A DNA stretch of 45,546 nucleotides from Pseudomonadota bacterium (GCA_043771805.1 JAYVGZ010000122.1:1-45546); one strand, 5' to 3'; numbered from the stretch's first letter, positions 6,515 to 44,822 are shown. Program-made: numbers and translations. The notes: generated from the letters alone by a model not told the origin.

Positions 6515-6901
6515 CTACGTTTCATCAAAGACTGCAATAGGTCGATTTGAACTGTCGACAGCGACCATCACCACCTCAGCCGATGTCACCCGGTGAGTCT
6601 GAATTGCATCTACACCTCGTTGGGCATCCACTTCTACACGGATGGAAATGGATGATTTCCCCACCTTTATCGTATCGCAATAGAAGCTGACCGCGTCACC
6701 AACATAGACCGGAGAAATAAACTCTACCTCACGCATGACTTTTGTAACGTACTTGCGCGGTGCAACCGAGCGGGCATGTTGGCCGGCAGCCAAATCGATG
6801 AGGCTTAAAATATGGCCTCCGAAGATGCTTCCGAGTGCGTTAGTATCACGTGGCATCATGATTGACCTGATTGCTGGATTTCTGGGGCATGCTTCGGTCA
6901 T
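6515..6901 (-). CDS. acyl-CoA thioesterase, hotdog fold (YciA-like)
   Basis: MMPRDTNALGSIFGGHILSLIDLAAG is typical of YciA-type thioesterases. I placed the start at the internal MTEACP Met, because the longer track ORF (to 6970) would overlap the divergent gene. Confidence 0.8.
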   Translation of the reverse strand: MTEACPRNPAIRSIMMPRDTNALGSIFGGHILSLIDLAAGQHARSVAPRKYVTKVMREVEFISPVYVGDAVSFYCDTIKVGKSSISIRVEVDAQRGVDAIQTHRVTSAEVVMVAVDSSNRPIAVFDET

Positions 6902-34710: not shown

Positions 34711-34756
34711 TACAGTACCTGTGTCATCATCCTAAAATCAGCTTGGAGTCCTTGAA

Positions 34757-34929
34757 CCTAAAAACGGCAGTTGCGGTTCGCACAGCGGCGCAGCTGAATG
34801 AAATCGCTGCGGCTTTTCTGTTTTCCGTACTCACCCTGACGGTGCCAGGGTTCTGTGCGAAAAACAGAAAATCCTTTGCGCTTTCATTCATCTGCACCAC
34901 TGTGCCTCTCCTTAACTGCCGTTTTTAGG
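34757..34929. repeat. 173-bp hairpin-forming element with 16-bp perfect terminal inverted repeats and flanking TTGAA direct repeats (MITE-like, or a structured sRNA)
   Basis: cctaaaaacggcagtt (34757-34772) pairs with aactgccgtttttagg (34914-34929). ttgaa occurs at 34752-34756 and 34930-34934. Nested internal pairings include gcagctgaatgaaa/tttcattcatctgc and ttttctgtttt/aaaacagaaaa. Confidence 0.6.
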
Positions 34930-35154
34930 TTGAATGCAGCGGCAAGAAGCAACTACCCTTACAATACTCCACAAGGCAATGTCTAAATTGTCAGAGTCTA
35001 ACTGCCGTAATCCATCGTGACCATAAACTAAATTGATGCTCGAAGATCGTTTTACGGTGCAGAACTGGACGTTTTTAAACGAATGAACGATCATCCCCGG
35101 TTGAAGTTAGAGCCAGTGCCTCGAGATGGCGTTTTAAATTGTGAGTCGTAGCCT

Positions 35155-36306
35155 ATGAATTCAGAACAGCCAAATTGTGCACGGTGTGGGGTAGCGAATT
35201 CAGCTGGAGCGAAGTTCTGCTCAGCGTGTGGAAGAAGCCTCTTCGTAAAGTCACTTTCTCAGATTCTACTGGGGCTTTCAGGTCGGCAAGCCGTTACCCT
35301 TCTTTCGACTGTAGCCCTGGCCTTCGGTTCTGCTTACGGCCTCCAAAGCTACAACCACTTCAGGCGCGGAGTCGAAAAACCGACAGAGGACTATCAACCT
35401 CCTGCGAACGGCGGGCAGCCACCCGCTGGGCACCCAGGGTCCGCCGCACCGGTAAAGGATGATCCTGAACTTGCTGCCCTGAGGGCTGCTGCTGAGAAGG
35501 AGCCGCAGGATCTAAAAAAACTGAGGGCTTTTGCAGGCGGTCTTGCTGATCGATTGCGCAGTAATCCCGAGGCGCCGCCGCAGCTAGCTTTTGATGCTAT
35601 TGATACCTTGAGTCGGATACTTCAGGTCCTTCCCGAAGATGCTGAAAGTCTCGTAATGATGGCTGATGTCTCGTTTGATCAACGGGCGTTCAACAAGGCG
35701 CTTGAATTTTATCAGCGTTATCTCAAATTACAGCCGGACGACGCAGGAGCTCGTGCAAGGTATGCAAGCACCCTTACATTCCTTGGCAAATACGACGAGT
35801 CGATCCGTGAATTGGATGGGATACTCGAAAAAGACCCGAAAAATTTCCCAGCGATGGCCTACTTAGCAATTACTTACGCCCAGCAGGGAAAAATGGATAA
35901 GGCGAAAGAGTTGGGAGCTACGGCACTTTCAATCGCGCCAACAGATGAGGCGAGGGCGCGGTTTTCTGCGTTTGTAACTTCTCTCGATTCGGCGGAAATC
36001 AAGGGGCCTGCTGAGGAGGCACCGAGAGGACAAACTGCACCACGCGGAGTGCCACTGATTATTTCTGCGATTCAGAATAACCCAATTGCAGGGCAAAAGT
36101 TTGTTCGTTTTGAAGATAAGGATCCCGCGGTTCTGCGGCTGTATTTCAAAGATTTTCCAATGCAGGCGATGCCGCCATTTGCGAAGGAGAAGTTCTACTC
36201 AGGAATTAGAGCGAAGGTGAAAGAAGCGCAGCTAGCAACCTTGAAAGAGATTCAATTTCTGGATGCAGATTCCGGACTTGAATTGGATAAGTTGGGGATT
36301 GAATAG
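35155..36306 (+). CDS. zinc-ribbon, single-TM, TPR-repeat protein
   Basis: N-terminal CARCG...CSACG zinc ribbon, one TM helix, a Pro/Ala-rich linker, then TPR-like repeats (ALEFYQRYLKLQPDDAGARARYASTL...). Confidence 0.75.
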   Translation: MNSEQPNCARCGVANSAGAKFCSACGRSLFVKSLSQILLGLSGRQAVTLLSTVALAFGSAYGLQSYNHFRRGVEKPTEDYQPPANGGQPPAGHPGSAAPVKDDPELAALRAAAEKEPQDLKKLRAFAGGLADRLRSNPEAPPQLAFDAIDTLSRILQVLPEDAESLVMMADVSFDQRAFNKALEFYQRYLKLQPDDAGARARYASTLTFLGKYDESIRELDGILEKDPKNFPAMAYLAITYAQQGKMDKAKELGATALSIAPTDEARARFSAFVTSLDSAEIKGPAEEAPRGQTAPRGVPLIISAIQNNPIAGQKFVRFEDKDPAVLRLYFKDFPMQAMPPFAKEKFYSGIRAKVKEAQLATLKEIQFLDADSGLELDKLGIE

Positions 36307-36310
36307 TAGT

Positions 36311-36342
36311 GACCCAATCCCAAGATCGAAGGGGATTGGGTC
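36311..36342. terminator. perfect 11-bp stem-loop between convergent genes
   Basis: gacccaatccc (36311-36321) pairs with gggattgggtc (36332-36342). There is no clear U-tract on either strand. Confidence 0.4.
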
Positions 36343-36351
36343 AAAGGTCAG

Positions 36352-36543
36352 TTAGGCAACACGGCTTACTGTTGACTGGTCATCCTTTGCAGACCTTGCT
36401 TCCGGTTGTCCGTTGTCGGCGCTCGCCTCTTGTACTTCCTCTTTTGGCTTAGCTTGCACCGCTTCTTTCTTTTTTTCTTCAACCTTTTGCTTCGGGGCAA
36501 GTTCAGGTGTTCGTTGTGCCGGAGCTCCAATTGATGATGCCAT
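36352..36543 (-). CDS. small Lys/Glu/Ala/Pro-rich, probably disordered protein
   Basis: 63 aa from an ATG preceded by an aggaga RBS (8-nt spacing). Low-complexity sequence KQKVEEKKKEAVQAKPKEEVQE. No family recognised. Confidence 0.4.
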   Translation of the reverse strand: MASSIGAPAQRTPELAPKQKVEEKKKEAVQAKPKEEVQEASADNGQPEARSAKDDQSTVSRVA

Positions 36544-36763
36544 GTGTACTTCTCCTAACCCGTCCATAGTTCGGAAAGATGAATTCCCGTAGTGCTAGCT
36601 CAGATTGGTGCGGCTGACGGAAAAGATACCACCCACCCGAACGTAGCGGCGAAAGCCCGATTGAGCCTCGATCATCTACCTAAGCACTCTGGCGACCGTT
36701 TCCTGGGAATCCTTTAGAAGCGGGCGCCCTATCGTATTCAACAGCAAGTTTTTTTGTGGTTTA

Positions 36764-37000
36764 CAGGCTAAGTAGCTGACTAGCCTGAATGCCGTGAGGC
36801 ATTCAGGGTAAGCGTTCAGGATGCAACACCCGAATGGTGTTGCCAAATCGGTGCGTTAGCACTGATTTGTAGGGGGTCTTTGGTTCGACACTGTGTCGTG
36901 GCGAATCAAAGACCCCCGCTTTGAAAAATGGCCACGGAGCCCCATTTTTCAAAGGATTTCTCATGTCTCGGCCGATCAGGCCGAGGTCCGTGAGAAATCC
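36764..37000. other. array of seven consecutive near-perfect stem-loops (structured ncRNA/UTR or REP/BIME-like palindrome cluster)
   Basis: Stems are at 36764-70/36781-87, 36784-93/36798-807, 36823-30/36836-43, 36845-54/36859-68, 36872-82/36907-17, 36919-31/36942-54 and 36954-65/36989-37000. Stem lengths are 7-13 bp and spacers are 0-15 nt (five of six are 4 nt or less). Confidence 0.7.
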
Positions 37001-37015
37001 AGGCTAGTCCTTGCT

Positions 37016-37636
37016 TTACGCCCATGTAAGGGATGCTAGCCACCCGCCAAAGAGGGTAATGCAAGAGAGCAGTTTTGCAGCAAAGGGCAACCTCGACGAT
37101 TTCTTGATAGTACCTGTTCGATCGAATTCAGACCAAATGGTGAAGAAAACCATTCCGATCCATGACCAGAAAAATAGTTGGGCTACTACCTGGAACGGGA
37201 AATTTACCGTCGGAGCGTGCGCCTCTCTGACGATGCTCGATGGAGTGGGGGCGAGGAGAGTCATTTCATTCTCGACCTGTTCAATGGGGACTCCGTTCCA
37301 AGCCCCGGGTAAGAACCACCACATTGAGCGGGACACGAAAAGCCCGCGCTTAAGCTGTTCGAGACATTCGAGACGAACCGCAGAAGCTCTACTTTCTTGG
37401 CGACAGAGAATGAACAGTTCGTGAGAACTTTCTGCAGCGAAAGAGTTATAAGGTGTGCGCCAGGAGATCGATGACCGGTAGGCGGTTATCGCTCCGTCCA
37501 CGTCACCTTTTGCTAGTCCCTCTCGGGCGGAATGAAGGAACAACCGTGATTCGTAGTATGGGCGTAACAAAACGGGGGCCGCCAGAACGAGCACCAAGCA
37601 AAGAGTAGAGAGTAATCTAAGTGGGATAGATTTCAA
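37016..37636 (-). CDS. membrane protein of unknown function, last gene of the GT2/TMTC-like operon
   Basis: 206 aa with an N-terminal TM or signal helix, a soluble middle and two C-terminal TM helices. Lies 11 nt downstream of the TMTC-like gene. Confidence 0.55.
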   Translation of the reverse strand: MKSIPLRLLSTLCLVLVLAAPVLLRPYYESRLFLHSAREGLAKGDVDGAITAYRSSISWRTPYNSFAAESSHELFILCRQESRASAVRLECLEQLKRGLFVSRSMWWFLPGAWNGVPIEQVENEMTLLAPTPSSIVREAHAPTVNFPFQVVAQLFFWSWIGMVFFTIWSEFDRTGTIKKSSRLPFAAKLLSCITLFGGWLASLTWA

Positions 37637-41048: not shown

Positions 41049-42191
41049 ATGCACTTTCTCTTCGCCTACTACACTCATAAACCCGGAGGCATGTGTAAGC
41101 GTCTCTATAGAGCTATGCATGCGGCAGCAGAGAGGGGTCACAAGGTAACATTTTGCACACTTGATCATCCCCCAATTGAAGTCCACGATGGAATGAGTAT
41201 CACGCTCGTTCCCTTCCCGTTACGGCGGAGAAACGGGCTTCTGTTTTGGGGGCTGTTCTCGGCTTGGCTGCCACTGTGGTTGCTGAAAGAGGTCCTCGTA
41301 AAAAAACCGGATCGTCTCGTTGCTTTTGGAGCTTACTACAGCTGCGCTATGGCGCTTGCGAGCTGGATAGCCTCGAAACCGACCATTCTTTTCCTCCGAT
41401 CTCTCACCTTTCGAAATGATGTATTGACAGGGAAGCCCGGTTGGTTGCGAAGAATTACTGGGACGGTCGATTGGATCGGCATCCGCGCTGCCCAGCGAGT
41501 GGTTTGCATGACGAGGAGCATGCAAGCAGAGGCGCAGGCGTTCTCGGGGCGAGATCTCGCTCAATTTGGTCTTCTTCCGAATGACATACCGAAAGAAATT
41601 GCTGCTAATGGGGCGCAATGCGACGGCGAATCTTCTTTGCCAGTAGGCGCTCAAGAATGCGTGAGCCGGGGAGGGATCGTGGCGGCGACGGCAGGGGTTC
41701 TCGACCGCCGCAAGAATGTATCGGTCCTGATTGAGGCATTGTCGCTTTATGAAAAAAATCTAGACACTCCTCCAGTGCACTTGATTGTTGCAGGAGAAGG
41801 AGCAGAACGGGCCGCGCTAACTCACCTTAGCGATCAGCTTGTACCGGGTATGGTTTCGTTTGTTGGATGGACGACCAACACTGCAGCACTCTTCTCCAGA
41901 GTCTCGCTAGTGCTTCACCCGGCTCTGCACGAGGGCATCCCTAATGTGGTCTTGGAGGCTCTGGCCGTAGGTACCCCCGTTGTGGTGTCTGATATTCCAG
42001 AGCACGCTGAAATCTTCTCCTCTGAGTTGATGCGCTGCGCACCTGGTGAGGCTGAGGCGTGGTTCCGCCTGCTGCTCCGCTTCTCAACGGAGGCAGCCTT
42101 TCGTCAATCCTTAATGGCGGCCGGCCAAGAGGTTCGTAACAGATTGATCTTTGATTGGGATCAACAGGTGATTGAACGAATTCTTGACTAG
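41049..42191 (+). CDS. GT4-family (GT-B) glycosyltransferase
   Basis: E-x7-E motif HEGIPNVVLEALAVGTPVV. 380 aa. Confidence 0.8.
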   Translation: MHFLFAYYTHKPGGMCKRLYRAMHAAAERGHKVTFCTLDHPPIEVHDGMSITLVPFPLRRRNGLLFWGLFSAWLPLWLLKEVLVKKPDRLVAFGAYYSCAMALASWIASKPTILFLRSLTFRNDVLTGKPGWLRRITGTVDWIGIRAAQRVVCMTRSMQAEAQAFSGRDLAQFGLLPNDIPKEIAANGAQCDGESSLPVGAQECVSRGGIVAATAGVLDRRKNVSVLIEALSLYEKNLDTPPVHLIVAGEGAERAALTHLSDQLVPGMVSFVGWTTNTAALFSRVSLVLHPALHEGIPNVVLEALAVGTPVVVSDIPEHAEIFSSELMRCAPGEAEAWFRLLLRFSTEAAFRQSLMAAGQEVRNRLIFDWDQQVIERILD

Positions 42192-42273
42192 GGCTTGTAA
42201 GAGTGCCGTGTTTCTTGCGGTGTGACCACCGCTGCGTTGCTAGCCGCCCTCTCGCTACGAAAACCTGTGAGCG

Positions 42274-42660
42274 ATGGCGGCCAGCCTTCCGTCAAGATGT
42301 TGTATTAGGAACTCATTCAAGAGCGACCTCCCAGCATGTCCCCAATGTCAGTCAGAATTAGCCTACGAAGACGGCAATCTCTTTGGGTGCCCTGAGTGTG
42401 CTCAAGAGTGGTTCCTTGAACAGCCTGTAGAAATTCCAGAACAAAGTTCGGTCGTGAAGGACTCCAACGGTCAACCGCTGCAGGATGGAGATACCGTTAC
42501 TGTCATTAAAGATTGAAAGGACAAGGGCACATCCTCTATCGTCAAGGTTGGTACTAAGGTGCGTATCCTTAGACTTCGTGACAGTGACCACGATAACGAC
42601 TGCAAAACTGATGGAATTGGGGCGACGAAGTTGAAGTCGGCGTTTGTAAGGAAGGCATAA
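42274..42660 (+). pseudogene. phnA: PhnA/YjdM zinc-ribbon protein interrupted by an in-frame TGA
   Basis: CPQCQSELAYEDGNLFGCPECAQEW...[67 protein letters not shown] aligns along its length with E. coli YjdM. The TGA at 42514-42516 replaces the conserved Leu of DLKVKGSSS. The N-terminal start is uncertain. Confidence 0.8.
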
Positions 42661-43868: not shown

Positions 43869-44291
43869 GAAAATGGATAACTTCAGTAGAAATATTCAAC
43901 ATGCTGTAATATTGATGATTTCCGACCCCATGCCACCTGCCCAACTCTAATACTTCTATGGACGTGAAAATCAGAGATGTACCTCTTTGCTCGCCAAAAG
44001 GTTGCTCATGACGGGACTCTAGGACTGCGAATGGTAGTTTTTGAATGATCGGGCCGGACCCGCCGGCGAACGACGACTATTTCGCACGCGGAAGCCCTTA
44101 ACATATGTTGGGACTACAGCCTTGCAGGCAAGTTTAATTGATAGGTTTTGACTGGACTTCTTAATTGCGCAGGAGCTATCGACTTGTAGAAACTCTCAAG
44201 GAAAGCCCATGATGACTCAATCGGTTGACCACGTACCACTATCGGCTCAACTGACTGATACGGCTTGAGAATCAATTGATTTTCCTATCAA

Positions 44292-44822
44292 TTGGACGAG
44301 AAGGAGTTCCTCTCTCCGTTCGGTATTCGCTCACTTTCAAAGATCCACGCCGACTATCCGTACACCCTCACAATTGATAACGCTCAACACCGCGTCGACT
44401 ACTGTCCGGGCGATTCGAACACTGATTTCTTCGGCGGAAATTCGAACTGGCGTGGACCAGTATGGTTTCCGATCAATATTTTACTGATTGAAGCGTTGGA
44501 GCGGTATGACTTTTTCTACGGAGATTCTCTCACGGTACCCTGCCCCACCGATTCCACAAAGACGATGACGTTACGCGAAGTAGCAAATGAGCTATCACGA
44601 AGATTGGCCGCACTGGTTTCGCGGGGAGCTGATGGGAGTCGTCCGTGCCATGGTAGCGAGGAGAAGTACGCTACTGATCCGCACTGGAAGGATCTCGTTC
44701 TCTTTTATGAACATTTTCACGGGGACACCGGACGTGGAATCGGCGCGAGTCATCAAACGGGGTGGACTGCGCTGGTGGCTTGGTGCTTGGAGCGCTTGCA
44801 AAAACGGGGCGTGACTAGATAA
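44292..44822 (+). pseudogene. C-terminal remnant of a GH63-like (MGH1/YgjK-type) glycoside hydrolase
   Basis: LDEKEFLSPFGIRSLSK...GGNSNWRGPVWFPINILLIEAL...HQTGWTALV resembles only the last ~175 aa of enzymes that I recall being roughly 800 aa. An in-frame TGA lies immediately upstream, and there is no ORF in the preceding 430 nt. Confidence 0.6.

Follow-up and report, generated by a model that had tools for sequence, protein, structure and literature searches.

An intergenic string of hairpins in a Pseudomonadota bacterium read as a copy of a MITE of IS1380 type

Results

The intergenic hairpin region

The region described here lies in a window of 45,546 nt, by which we mean the whole stretch of DNA that was analysed, and which is contig C122 of G000, a MAG of 3.66 Mb in 638 contigs that is 87% complete. 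On its right it is bordered by the gene of a 206-aa membrane protein, located on the minus strand at 37016-37636 with its stop codon at 37016-37018, for which no Pfam family was found, and on its left by a small ORF that starts at 36567. A sequence-only reading of the window had described seven stem-loops within 36764-37000, and all seven were found at these positions. Some of its measurements have to be adjusted: the plus strand contains about four G-U pairs and not only two, 15 nt and not 16 nt separate the right edge of the array from the stop codon just mentioned, and the distance to the start of the small ORF is about 196 nt and not about 220 nt. When the two strands of 36740-37020 were folded, the plus strand gave -143.3 kcal/mol (z -11.4) and the minus strand gave -132.0 kcal/mol (z -12.1), and in each case none of 200 shuffled sequences folded as strongly. 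The long-range stem with which RNAfold closes this fold (gactagcctg / caggctagtc) consists of the target-site duplication and the terminal-repeat tips that are described below.

No Rfam family reached its gathering threshold anywhere in the window, and the best match to the region in a permissive Rfam search was TD-2, with 25 bits against a cut-off of 48.7. A simple scan of 36250-37100 revealed no sigma-70-like promoter and no intrinsic-terminator pattern. A perfect 12-bp hairpin at 36310-36343 (tgacccaatccc / gggattgggtca), placed between a 383-aa TPR gene and a 71-aa ORF that are convergent, is likely a bidirectional terminator-like structure, and this simple scan did not call it. Other repeats are present in the window as well. 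Positions 34752-34934 hold a 173-bp MITE-like element that recurs about 12 times, complete or in part, on other contigs (84-96% identity); it has different ends and a TTGAA duplication and is a separate repeat family. Positions 1-200 have 61 matches on other contigs and are a high-copy repeat at the contig end, and positions 42101-42400 and 44101-44400 are each repeated four to six times elsewhere in the genome.

We assign most of the hairpin region to a single mobile element. Positions 36784-37003 of the window are, with a probability that we put at about 0.9, one copy of a MITE, that is, of a non-autonomous DNA transposon of IS1380 type. The copy lies on the plus strand and measures 220 nt, compared with 208 nt for the consensus of the repeat unit, which spans CCTGAATGCCTCACGG ... 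CCGTGAGAAATCCAGG. It is flanked by a CTAG at 36780-36783 and a second CTAG at 37004-37007, which are the left and right target-site duplications (the 4-mers co-vary between both flanks of the copies, see below), and the right one is separated by 8 nt from the stop of the 206-aa gene, which remains outside the element. The terminal inverted repeats are imperfect and about 16 bp long, with the pattern CCTGRATnnCTCACGG; the two ends read inward, CCTGAATGCCTCACGG and CCTGGATTTCTCACGG, are identical at 13 of 16 positions, the right repeat occupying 36988-37003 and reading CCTGGATTTCTCACGG on the minus strand. Six independent local hairpins account for 79% of the bases of the element. The element is short, remaining under the limit of about 500 bp that applies to a MITE, multi-copy and non-coding, with some short ORFs crossing the window copy, and every testable defining feature of a MITE is present in it.

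The seven stem-loops are not equivalent with respect to this element. In hairpin 1, positions 36765-36771 pair with 36781-36787, and most of it is flank: the left arm (caggcta, 36765-36771) is flanking DNA outside the element, and in the arm that it meets, the target-site duplication is followed by nucleotides 1-4 of the element. Homology among 21 aligned copies begins at 36784, the flanks upstream of this position being unrelated, and hairpin 1 is a chance pairing of the flank with the target duplication and the tip of the terminal repeat. Hairpin 2 (36784-36807, plus strand) is a palindrome holding the left inverted repeat (consensus CCTGAATGCCTCACGG), and hairpin 7 (36954-37000, plus strand) has an outer stem formed by the right inverted repeat and its internal inverted copy, which encloses a small inner hairpin. 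These two are terminal palindromes that hold the presumed transposase recognition sequences, and the hairpins between them form a four-hairpin cargo, all on the plus strand: hairpin 3 (gcaacacc-cgaat-ggtgttgc, 36823-36843), hairpin 4 with its GTTA loop (36844-36869), hairpin 5 with the apex TTCGACACTGTGTCGTGGCGAA (36872-36917) and hairpin 6 (36919-36954). The stems had been described as unrelated in sequence, a description that needs revision since the transposon ends form part of hairpins 2 and 7 and most of hairpin 1 belongs to the flank.

The window copy has peculiarities of its own. The 15-nt gap that had been pointed out between hairpins 2 and 3 is present, and it is there because of a private 13-nt insertion on the plus strand (taagcgttcagga, 36809-36821), which none of 16 other aligned copies has and which repeats the 3' arm of hairpin 2 imperfectly. 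Moreover, the loop of hairpin 2 reads GTGA in this copy, an inversion of the TCAC that all other copies have. Because the left CTCAC motif is thereby inverted, the window copy is probably no longer mobile.

Copies and target-site duplications in the genome

A search of the genome showed that the block recurs at 76-95% identity on other contigs of G000, in 21 long copies or more; several of them are cut by contig ends, so that this count is a minimum, and 20 copies were recovered from G000 with a covariance model. The family probably breaks the assembly of the MAG at several contig ends. Given at least 21 dispersed copies, the proposal that the hairpins represent a unique and novel multi-hairpin RNA locus fails, on the very ground that the sequence-only reading had named as decisive against it.

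Aligned with 90-nt flanks, the copies have sharp boundaries and unrelated flanks. The 4-mers next to the boundaries vary among copies (CTAG, TTAG, CTAA, ATAG), yet of 14 intact copies, 11 have the same 4-mer on both sides (permutation p = 7e-5), the duplications of the remaining three differing at one base. This agreement within copies indicates that insertion duplicates 4 bp of a YTAR target. The flanks read YTAG...CTAR and look at first sight like a TA duplication, which would suit a MITE of another family that targets YTAR or CTAG, such as IS630/Tc1-mariner (TA in CTAG) or IS5, which has been reported to make a 4-bp YTAR duplication. An IS630-type TA duplication was indeed our first guess, and the covariation of the 4-mers led us to drop it: the bases on either side of the TA change together at the two flanks (ATAG/ATAG, CTAA/CTAA, TTAA/TTAA), and the duplication is therefore 4 bp and not TA. 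Furthermore, the sole full-length element of the genome with CCTGnATnnCTCAC ends encodes a transposase of the IS1380 family, and an annotated IS1380 copy from Rhizobium has the same type of end beside CTAG (both are described below). We therefore regard an origin from IS630 or IS5 as quite improbable.

Matching duplications also surround shortened forms of the element. In C540 and C154, deletion derivatives have hairpins 2-5 fused to the 3' end, the short copy in C154 being flanked by TTAA/TTAA, and C180 contains a 53-nt mini-element. In addition, the copy in C425 provides a paralogous empty site: it interrupts one member of a different repeat family, 15 further members of which show just one CTAA where the insertion occurred. 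The interrupted family, the third dispersed repeat described here, is about 175 nt long (TACTAAGGAGGCGGATGAATAGGCTAC...GTAGCCTATTCAGGCGCCCAGGTAGTAAGT) and has at least 17 copies, located in G000 at C633:2620, C497:2228, C289:795, C188:994, C125:396 and at least 10 more sites.

The arrangement of the copies also bears on the suggestion, made from the bare sequence and favoured there over an RNA, of a DNA-level palindrome cluster of REP/BIME kind. Units of REP/BIME or REPIN type spread by a RAYT (a Y1 transposase) and clustered by chance would form a repeat that is dispersed, intergenic and palindromic, as this one is, and the genome contains one Y1_Tnp gene (C276, 36 bits). However, hairpins 3-7 occur only within copies of the element or its deletion derivatives and never singly, the palindrome of hairpin 2 recurs only as the end of shortened copies, and the contig with the Y1 gene bears no copy, while the ends of the element match those of an IS1380 element. 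The suggestion thus stands in so far as the block is a dispersed DNA repeat, and it does not stand as to REP/BIME, since the unit is a 208-nt block with terminal inverted repeats and 4-bp duplications. With no lone 20-40-nt units and no association with a RAYT, REP/BIME/REPIN is refuted on its defining features, and we give this explanation hardly any credence.

All 22 copies are intergenic, and many of them lie 1-45 nt from gene ends, often from 3' ends. Positions of this kind are expected because YTAR contains stop codons and the duplication regenerates the stop. In the fragmented MAG G000 there was no orientation bias with respect to the 3' ends of adjacent genes (8 sense, 10 antisense), nor with respect to local GC skew (13 vs 9), for which the MAG is too fragmented to allow a fair test. 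No empty allele of the window locus was found in the MAG, and metagenome contigs gave 0 matches for the empty-site junction and 0 matches for the core of the MITE; the plasmid collection likewise lacked any sequence matching the MITE. Among 35 genomes of the same family, none encodes a homologue of the 206-aa protein, and there is consequently no orthologous empty site in them.

Some copies record rearrangements of the palindromes themselves. In C68:2042-2261 and C255:1364-1609, the 13-nt unit CACTGTGTCGTGG of hairpin 5 is tandemly expanded to 2 and about 4 copies, respectively, and in C260:3020-3230 the left arm of hairpin 7 has been rewritten as the perfect complement of the right arm, a conversion that is a template-switch footprint. 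The CACTGTGTCGTGG expansions, the C260 arm and the inverted loop of the window copy are all instances of palindrome dynamics at the DNA level.

An IS1380-family partner

A scan of G000 with the end motif identified two elements of 1,652 bp, C605:41-1692 and C74:813-2464, which are 91.7% identical to each other. Their left end (CCTGAATACCTCACAG) and right end (CCTGGATGCCTCACGG) each agree with the MITE end at 14 of 16 positions, their inverted repeats are 16 bp long, and they contain a single intact ORF of 451 aa; the flanks are TTAG/TTAG for the C74 element and CTAG/TTAG for the C605 element. The 451-aa transposase scores 348 bits on the NCBIfam model NF033539, 'IS1380 family transposase' (cut-off 180), and 431 bits on PF13701 (cut-off 34.7), and it is 46-47% identical to annotated IS1380 transposases on Rhizobium plasmids. 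On one of these plasmids, the left end of the IS1380 copy reads CTAG followed by CCTGAATATCTCAAAG, which indicates that this type of end and the CTAG flank are common to an IS1380 subgroup in cultured bacteria too. The partner IS belongs to the IS1380 family, the members of which have about 1.6-1.7 kb, one ORF, short inverted repeats and direct repeats of 4-5 bp, as the models, the size, the single ORF and the repeats all fit.

The interior of the MITE is unrelated to this IS, and BLAST matches between the two are confined to the ends. The link between MITE and IS is documented in G000 only: among the other genomes with related elements (see below), G107 and G108 (about 20 copies) have no assembled IS1380 transposase, and in G081 and G004 it is present only as pieces located at contig ends, with no matching inverted repeat recognised in the G081 fragment. 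Insertion sequences are often unassembled in MAGs.

A second MITE family of about 186-199 nt is present in G000. It has related ends of IS1380 type (CCTGCATCGCTCACAGG), CTAG flanks and a palindromic mini-form of about 40 nt, and it shares the motif CGACACTGTG with the hairpin-5 apex of the window MITE. Its sites are C84:~800-984, C471:~1120-1318, C312:5103, C174:5916 and C378:2115-2164, as well as the contig ends of C71, C72, C108, C131 and C571. The hairpin-5 apex was considered as an internal transposase site and rejected in this role, the motif being absent from the IS, yet present in the second MITE family.

Conservation of the structure in other genomes

BLAST and a covariance model of hairpins 3-5 were applied to the phylum as a whole, represented by 124 genomes. 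In the 35 genomes of the same family the element was missing, save for two fragments in G004, and the search of the phylum uncovered three more hosts: G107, from another family of the same order, with one full-length homologue of 72% identity flanked by TTAG/TTAG; G108, a congener of G107, with about 20 copies; and G081, from the same class, with about 15 weaker matches. In the elements of these three genomes the six hairpins follow one another as in G000, YTAR duplications are present and the stems differ in sequence. Hairpin 3 is kept in all three by A-U to G-C compensation around a conserved CGGAT loop, the inner pairs of hairpin 4 have changed on both sides in G107 and G108, and hairpin 6 has homologous hairpins in G107, G108 and G081. 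In hairpin 5, the apex TTCGACACTGTGTCGTGGCGAA is conserved in sequence across lineages and the basal stem has been replaced with compensation, seven of the eight pairs of this helix having changed on both sides. Sequence conservation between genomes extends to some of the loops, CGGAT in hairpin 3 and ACACT(G/C)TGTCGTGG at the hairpin-5 apex.

Related structures were seen in other arrangements. Strings of intergenic hairpins were found in G004, a member of the same family but of a different genus, at L010 1500-1600 (C191) and L018 1500-1660 (C58); they share hairpins 3-4 (GGTGTTGGCGAATCAGTG...), have different loops and lack recognisable terminal repeats. In G081 and G108, each terminal palindrome has CTAG on both sides. 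The G081 copy at C259:~6600-6900 contains an additional palindrome of 33 nt (CAGGTTGCTGAAAAACTAGTTTTCAGCAACCTG) that separates hairpin 2 from hairpin 3 and has CTAG on both sides; this palindrome is a mini-element nested in the MITE.

Pairing was quantified on a MAFFT alignment of four copies from G000, one from G107 and six from G108, from which hairpin 6 was omitted as misaligned by one column; the structure that was scored was derived from this same alignment. The cells forming a standard pair amounted to 98.5%, compared with 82.5% in shuffled alignments and 36-44% with slid partners; 25 of 53 pairs had changed on both sides (shuffled 17.1, slid partners 4-8), and the covariation score was 0.482 (shuffled 0.179, slid partners 0.064-0.104). 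None of 500 shuffles reached the observed values of pairing or covariation. Copies from G000 alone show hardly any covariation, with a single pair changed on both sides and a covariation term of +0.43, and the case for a maintained structure therefore rests on the comparison between genomes. The fact that the stems differ yet stay paired means that the folds are maintained, either by selection at the level of the element or by self-correction of the palindromes.

These data also have to be weighed with respect to the possibility that the block is primarily a structured non-coding RNA or cis-acting RNA, present in many copies, whose hairpins are selected for a function of the host. Such an RNA would account for the very strong folding, for the compensatory changes that keep all hairpins and for the many copies at 1-45 nt from the 3' ends of genes, and it would agree with the divergence in G000 of paired columns at half the rate of unpaired ones (3.4% vs 6.6%; Fisher p = 3e-4, the copies not being independent). 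It would also agree with an asymmetry between the strands, as sites departing from Watson-Crick pairing are mostly G-U on the plus strand (15 G-U sites vs 3 A-C sites, binomial p = 0.0075) and the plus strand folds better in 27 of 30 copies. However, this G-U asymmetry is a hint only, because a few ancestral G000/G107 positions cause most of it and it is absent in G108, and the stems are nearly all Watson-Crick, as suits DNA palindromes. The orientation of copies at gene 3' ends is without bias, no Rfam family was matched at threshold, and no promoter-like or terminator-like sites were found. Terminal inverted repeats, target duplications and a matching IS show transposition, and we consider it unlikely that the block is in the first place an RNA of the host.

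Discussion

In this study, we describe a conspicuous string of hairpins between two genes as a member of a repeat family that has terminal inverted repeats, target-site duplications and a matching IS in the same genome. Taken together, these three features mean that the copies arose by transposition. It would be the DDE transposase of the resident IS1380-family IS, of the type found in C605 and C74, that mobilises the MITE in trans, presumably by recognising the imperfect terminal inverted repeats of about 16 bp that the two have in common; we infer this from the likeness of their ends. At the window locus, the element would have been inserted at a YTAR site, here the CTAG that lies 8 nt beyond the stop of the 206-aa gene, and the 4 bp of this site would have been duplicated in the process.

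The IS1380 family includes IS1380, IS1247 and ISEcp1, and the partner IS resembles its members in having 1,652 bp and a single DDE transposase that scores above the NCBIfam equivalog cut-off. For comparison, IS1247 is 1,672 bp long with inverted repeats of 16/13 and a direct repeat of 5 bp (PMC3281130). The MITE is like the insertion sequences of this family in that its terminal repeats begin with CC and are about 16 bp long and that it duplicates 4 bp of the target, and it is unlike them in that it has no transposase and an interior unrelated to the IS. Full-text searches of the literature found no description of MITEs derived from IS1380. The transposases of the IS1380 family have been used as the prokaryotic outgroup of piggyBac (PMC10813416). 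As in the eukaryotic piggyBac transposons and the MITEs of piggyBac type, the 4-bp duplication of the MITE falls on a tetranucleotide centred on TA (TTAA in piggyBac, YTAR here, with TTAA in C154). Unlike piggyBac, the MITE has a looser target with a preference for CTAG, and its host is a bacterium. The excision chemistry of piggyBac, with its hairpin ends, is a feature of piggyBac that the present data do not support for the MITE.

Several families of bacterial MITEs form stem-loops, among them Correia/NEMIS in Neisseria, ERIC/IRU in enterobacteria, RUP and BOX in Streptococcus pneumoniae and the Rickettsia palindromic elements. The element described here shares with them that it is short, non-coding, multi-copy and mostly intergenic, that it is strongly self-complementary, and that it has terminal inverted repeats and target duplications. 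These families mostly fold as one long foldback, BOX being built of modular boxes, and RNA-level effects have been shown for some of the families of the Correia, ERIC, RUP, BOX and Rickettsia type. What sets the present element apart from them is its six separate local hairpins, the layout of which is compensated across bacterial families. It also resembles REP/BIME/REPIN elements, which are dispersed clusters of intergenic palindromes as well. However, REPs are units of 20-40 nt that are moved by RAYTs and have neither terminal inverted repeats nor target duplications, whereas the unit of the MITE is a 208-nt block with ends of IS1380 type.

The locus itself is ordinary selfish DNA, and the unexpected part is a cargo with compensated hairpins. 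For an ordinary MITE the ends suffice, and a transposon model does not by itself account for how strongly the cargo is conserved. The likeliest explanation, in our view, would be that selection at the level of the element acts on the fold, or on a factor bound to it, for mobilisation, combined with self-correction of the quasi-palindromes. The fold would serve the compaction or end-pairing of a single strand, or the binding of a factor at the hairpin-5 apex, and the quasi-palindromes would correct themselves neutrally by template switching, with footprints in copy C260 and the window copy; this self-correction alone would come second in our order of likelihood. Neighbouring genes may also be affected at the RNA level, an effect that we place last; the orientation data lend it no support.

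A more specific proposal goes further, and we advance it tentatively, as rather less probable than its negation. The cargo and the terminal palindromes might act as a folded single strand, either as RNA or as plus-strand ssDNA, that is required for propagation of IS1380 type, and the element might be a miniature composite in which palindromic mini-MITEs surround a captured core. Such a folded strand might join both ends of the element or bind a factor at the hairpin-5 apex TTCGACACTGTGTCGTGGCGAA. The compensation across three bacterial families and the excess of G-U over A-C on one strand are compatible with a folded strand, and the conserved loops, the CTAG-flanked terminal palindromes and the nested extra palindrome are compatible with the folded strand or with the composite. 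With regard to the composite in particular, the arrangement of these sequences suggests that mini-MITEs may indeed have come to enclose the core. A folded-single-strand step is not known for DDE transposons of the IS1380 family.

These findings have consequences for how the locus and its relatives are to be understood. The most conspicuous structured-RNA candidate of the window is selfish DNA and not a regulator of the adjacent glycosylation operon. Minus-strand read-through from this operon would nevertheless carry a strongly folded tail of 220 nt, and that such a tail might affect the stability of the operon mRNA is speculation. For the IS1380 family, the element adds a clear case of MITEs that are tied to these bacterial relatives of piggyBac and use a 4-bp YTAR target. 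Since six hairpins are preserved by compensation across families, a structural constraint is possible, and these elements may thus face a constraint that goes beyond the standard cut-and-paste picture.
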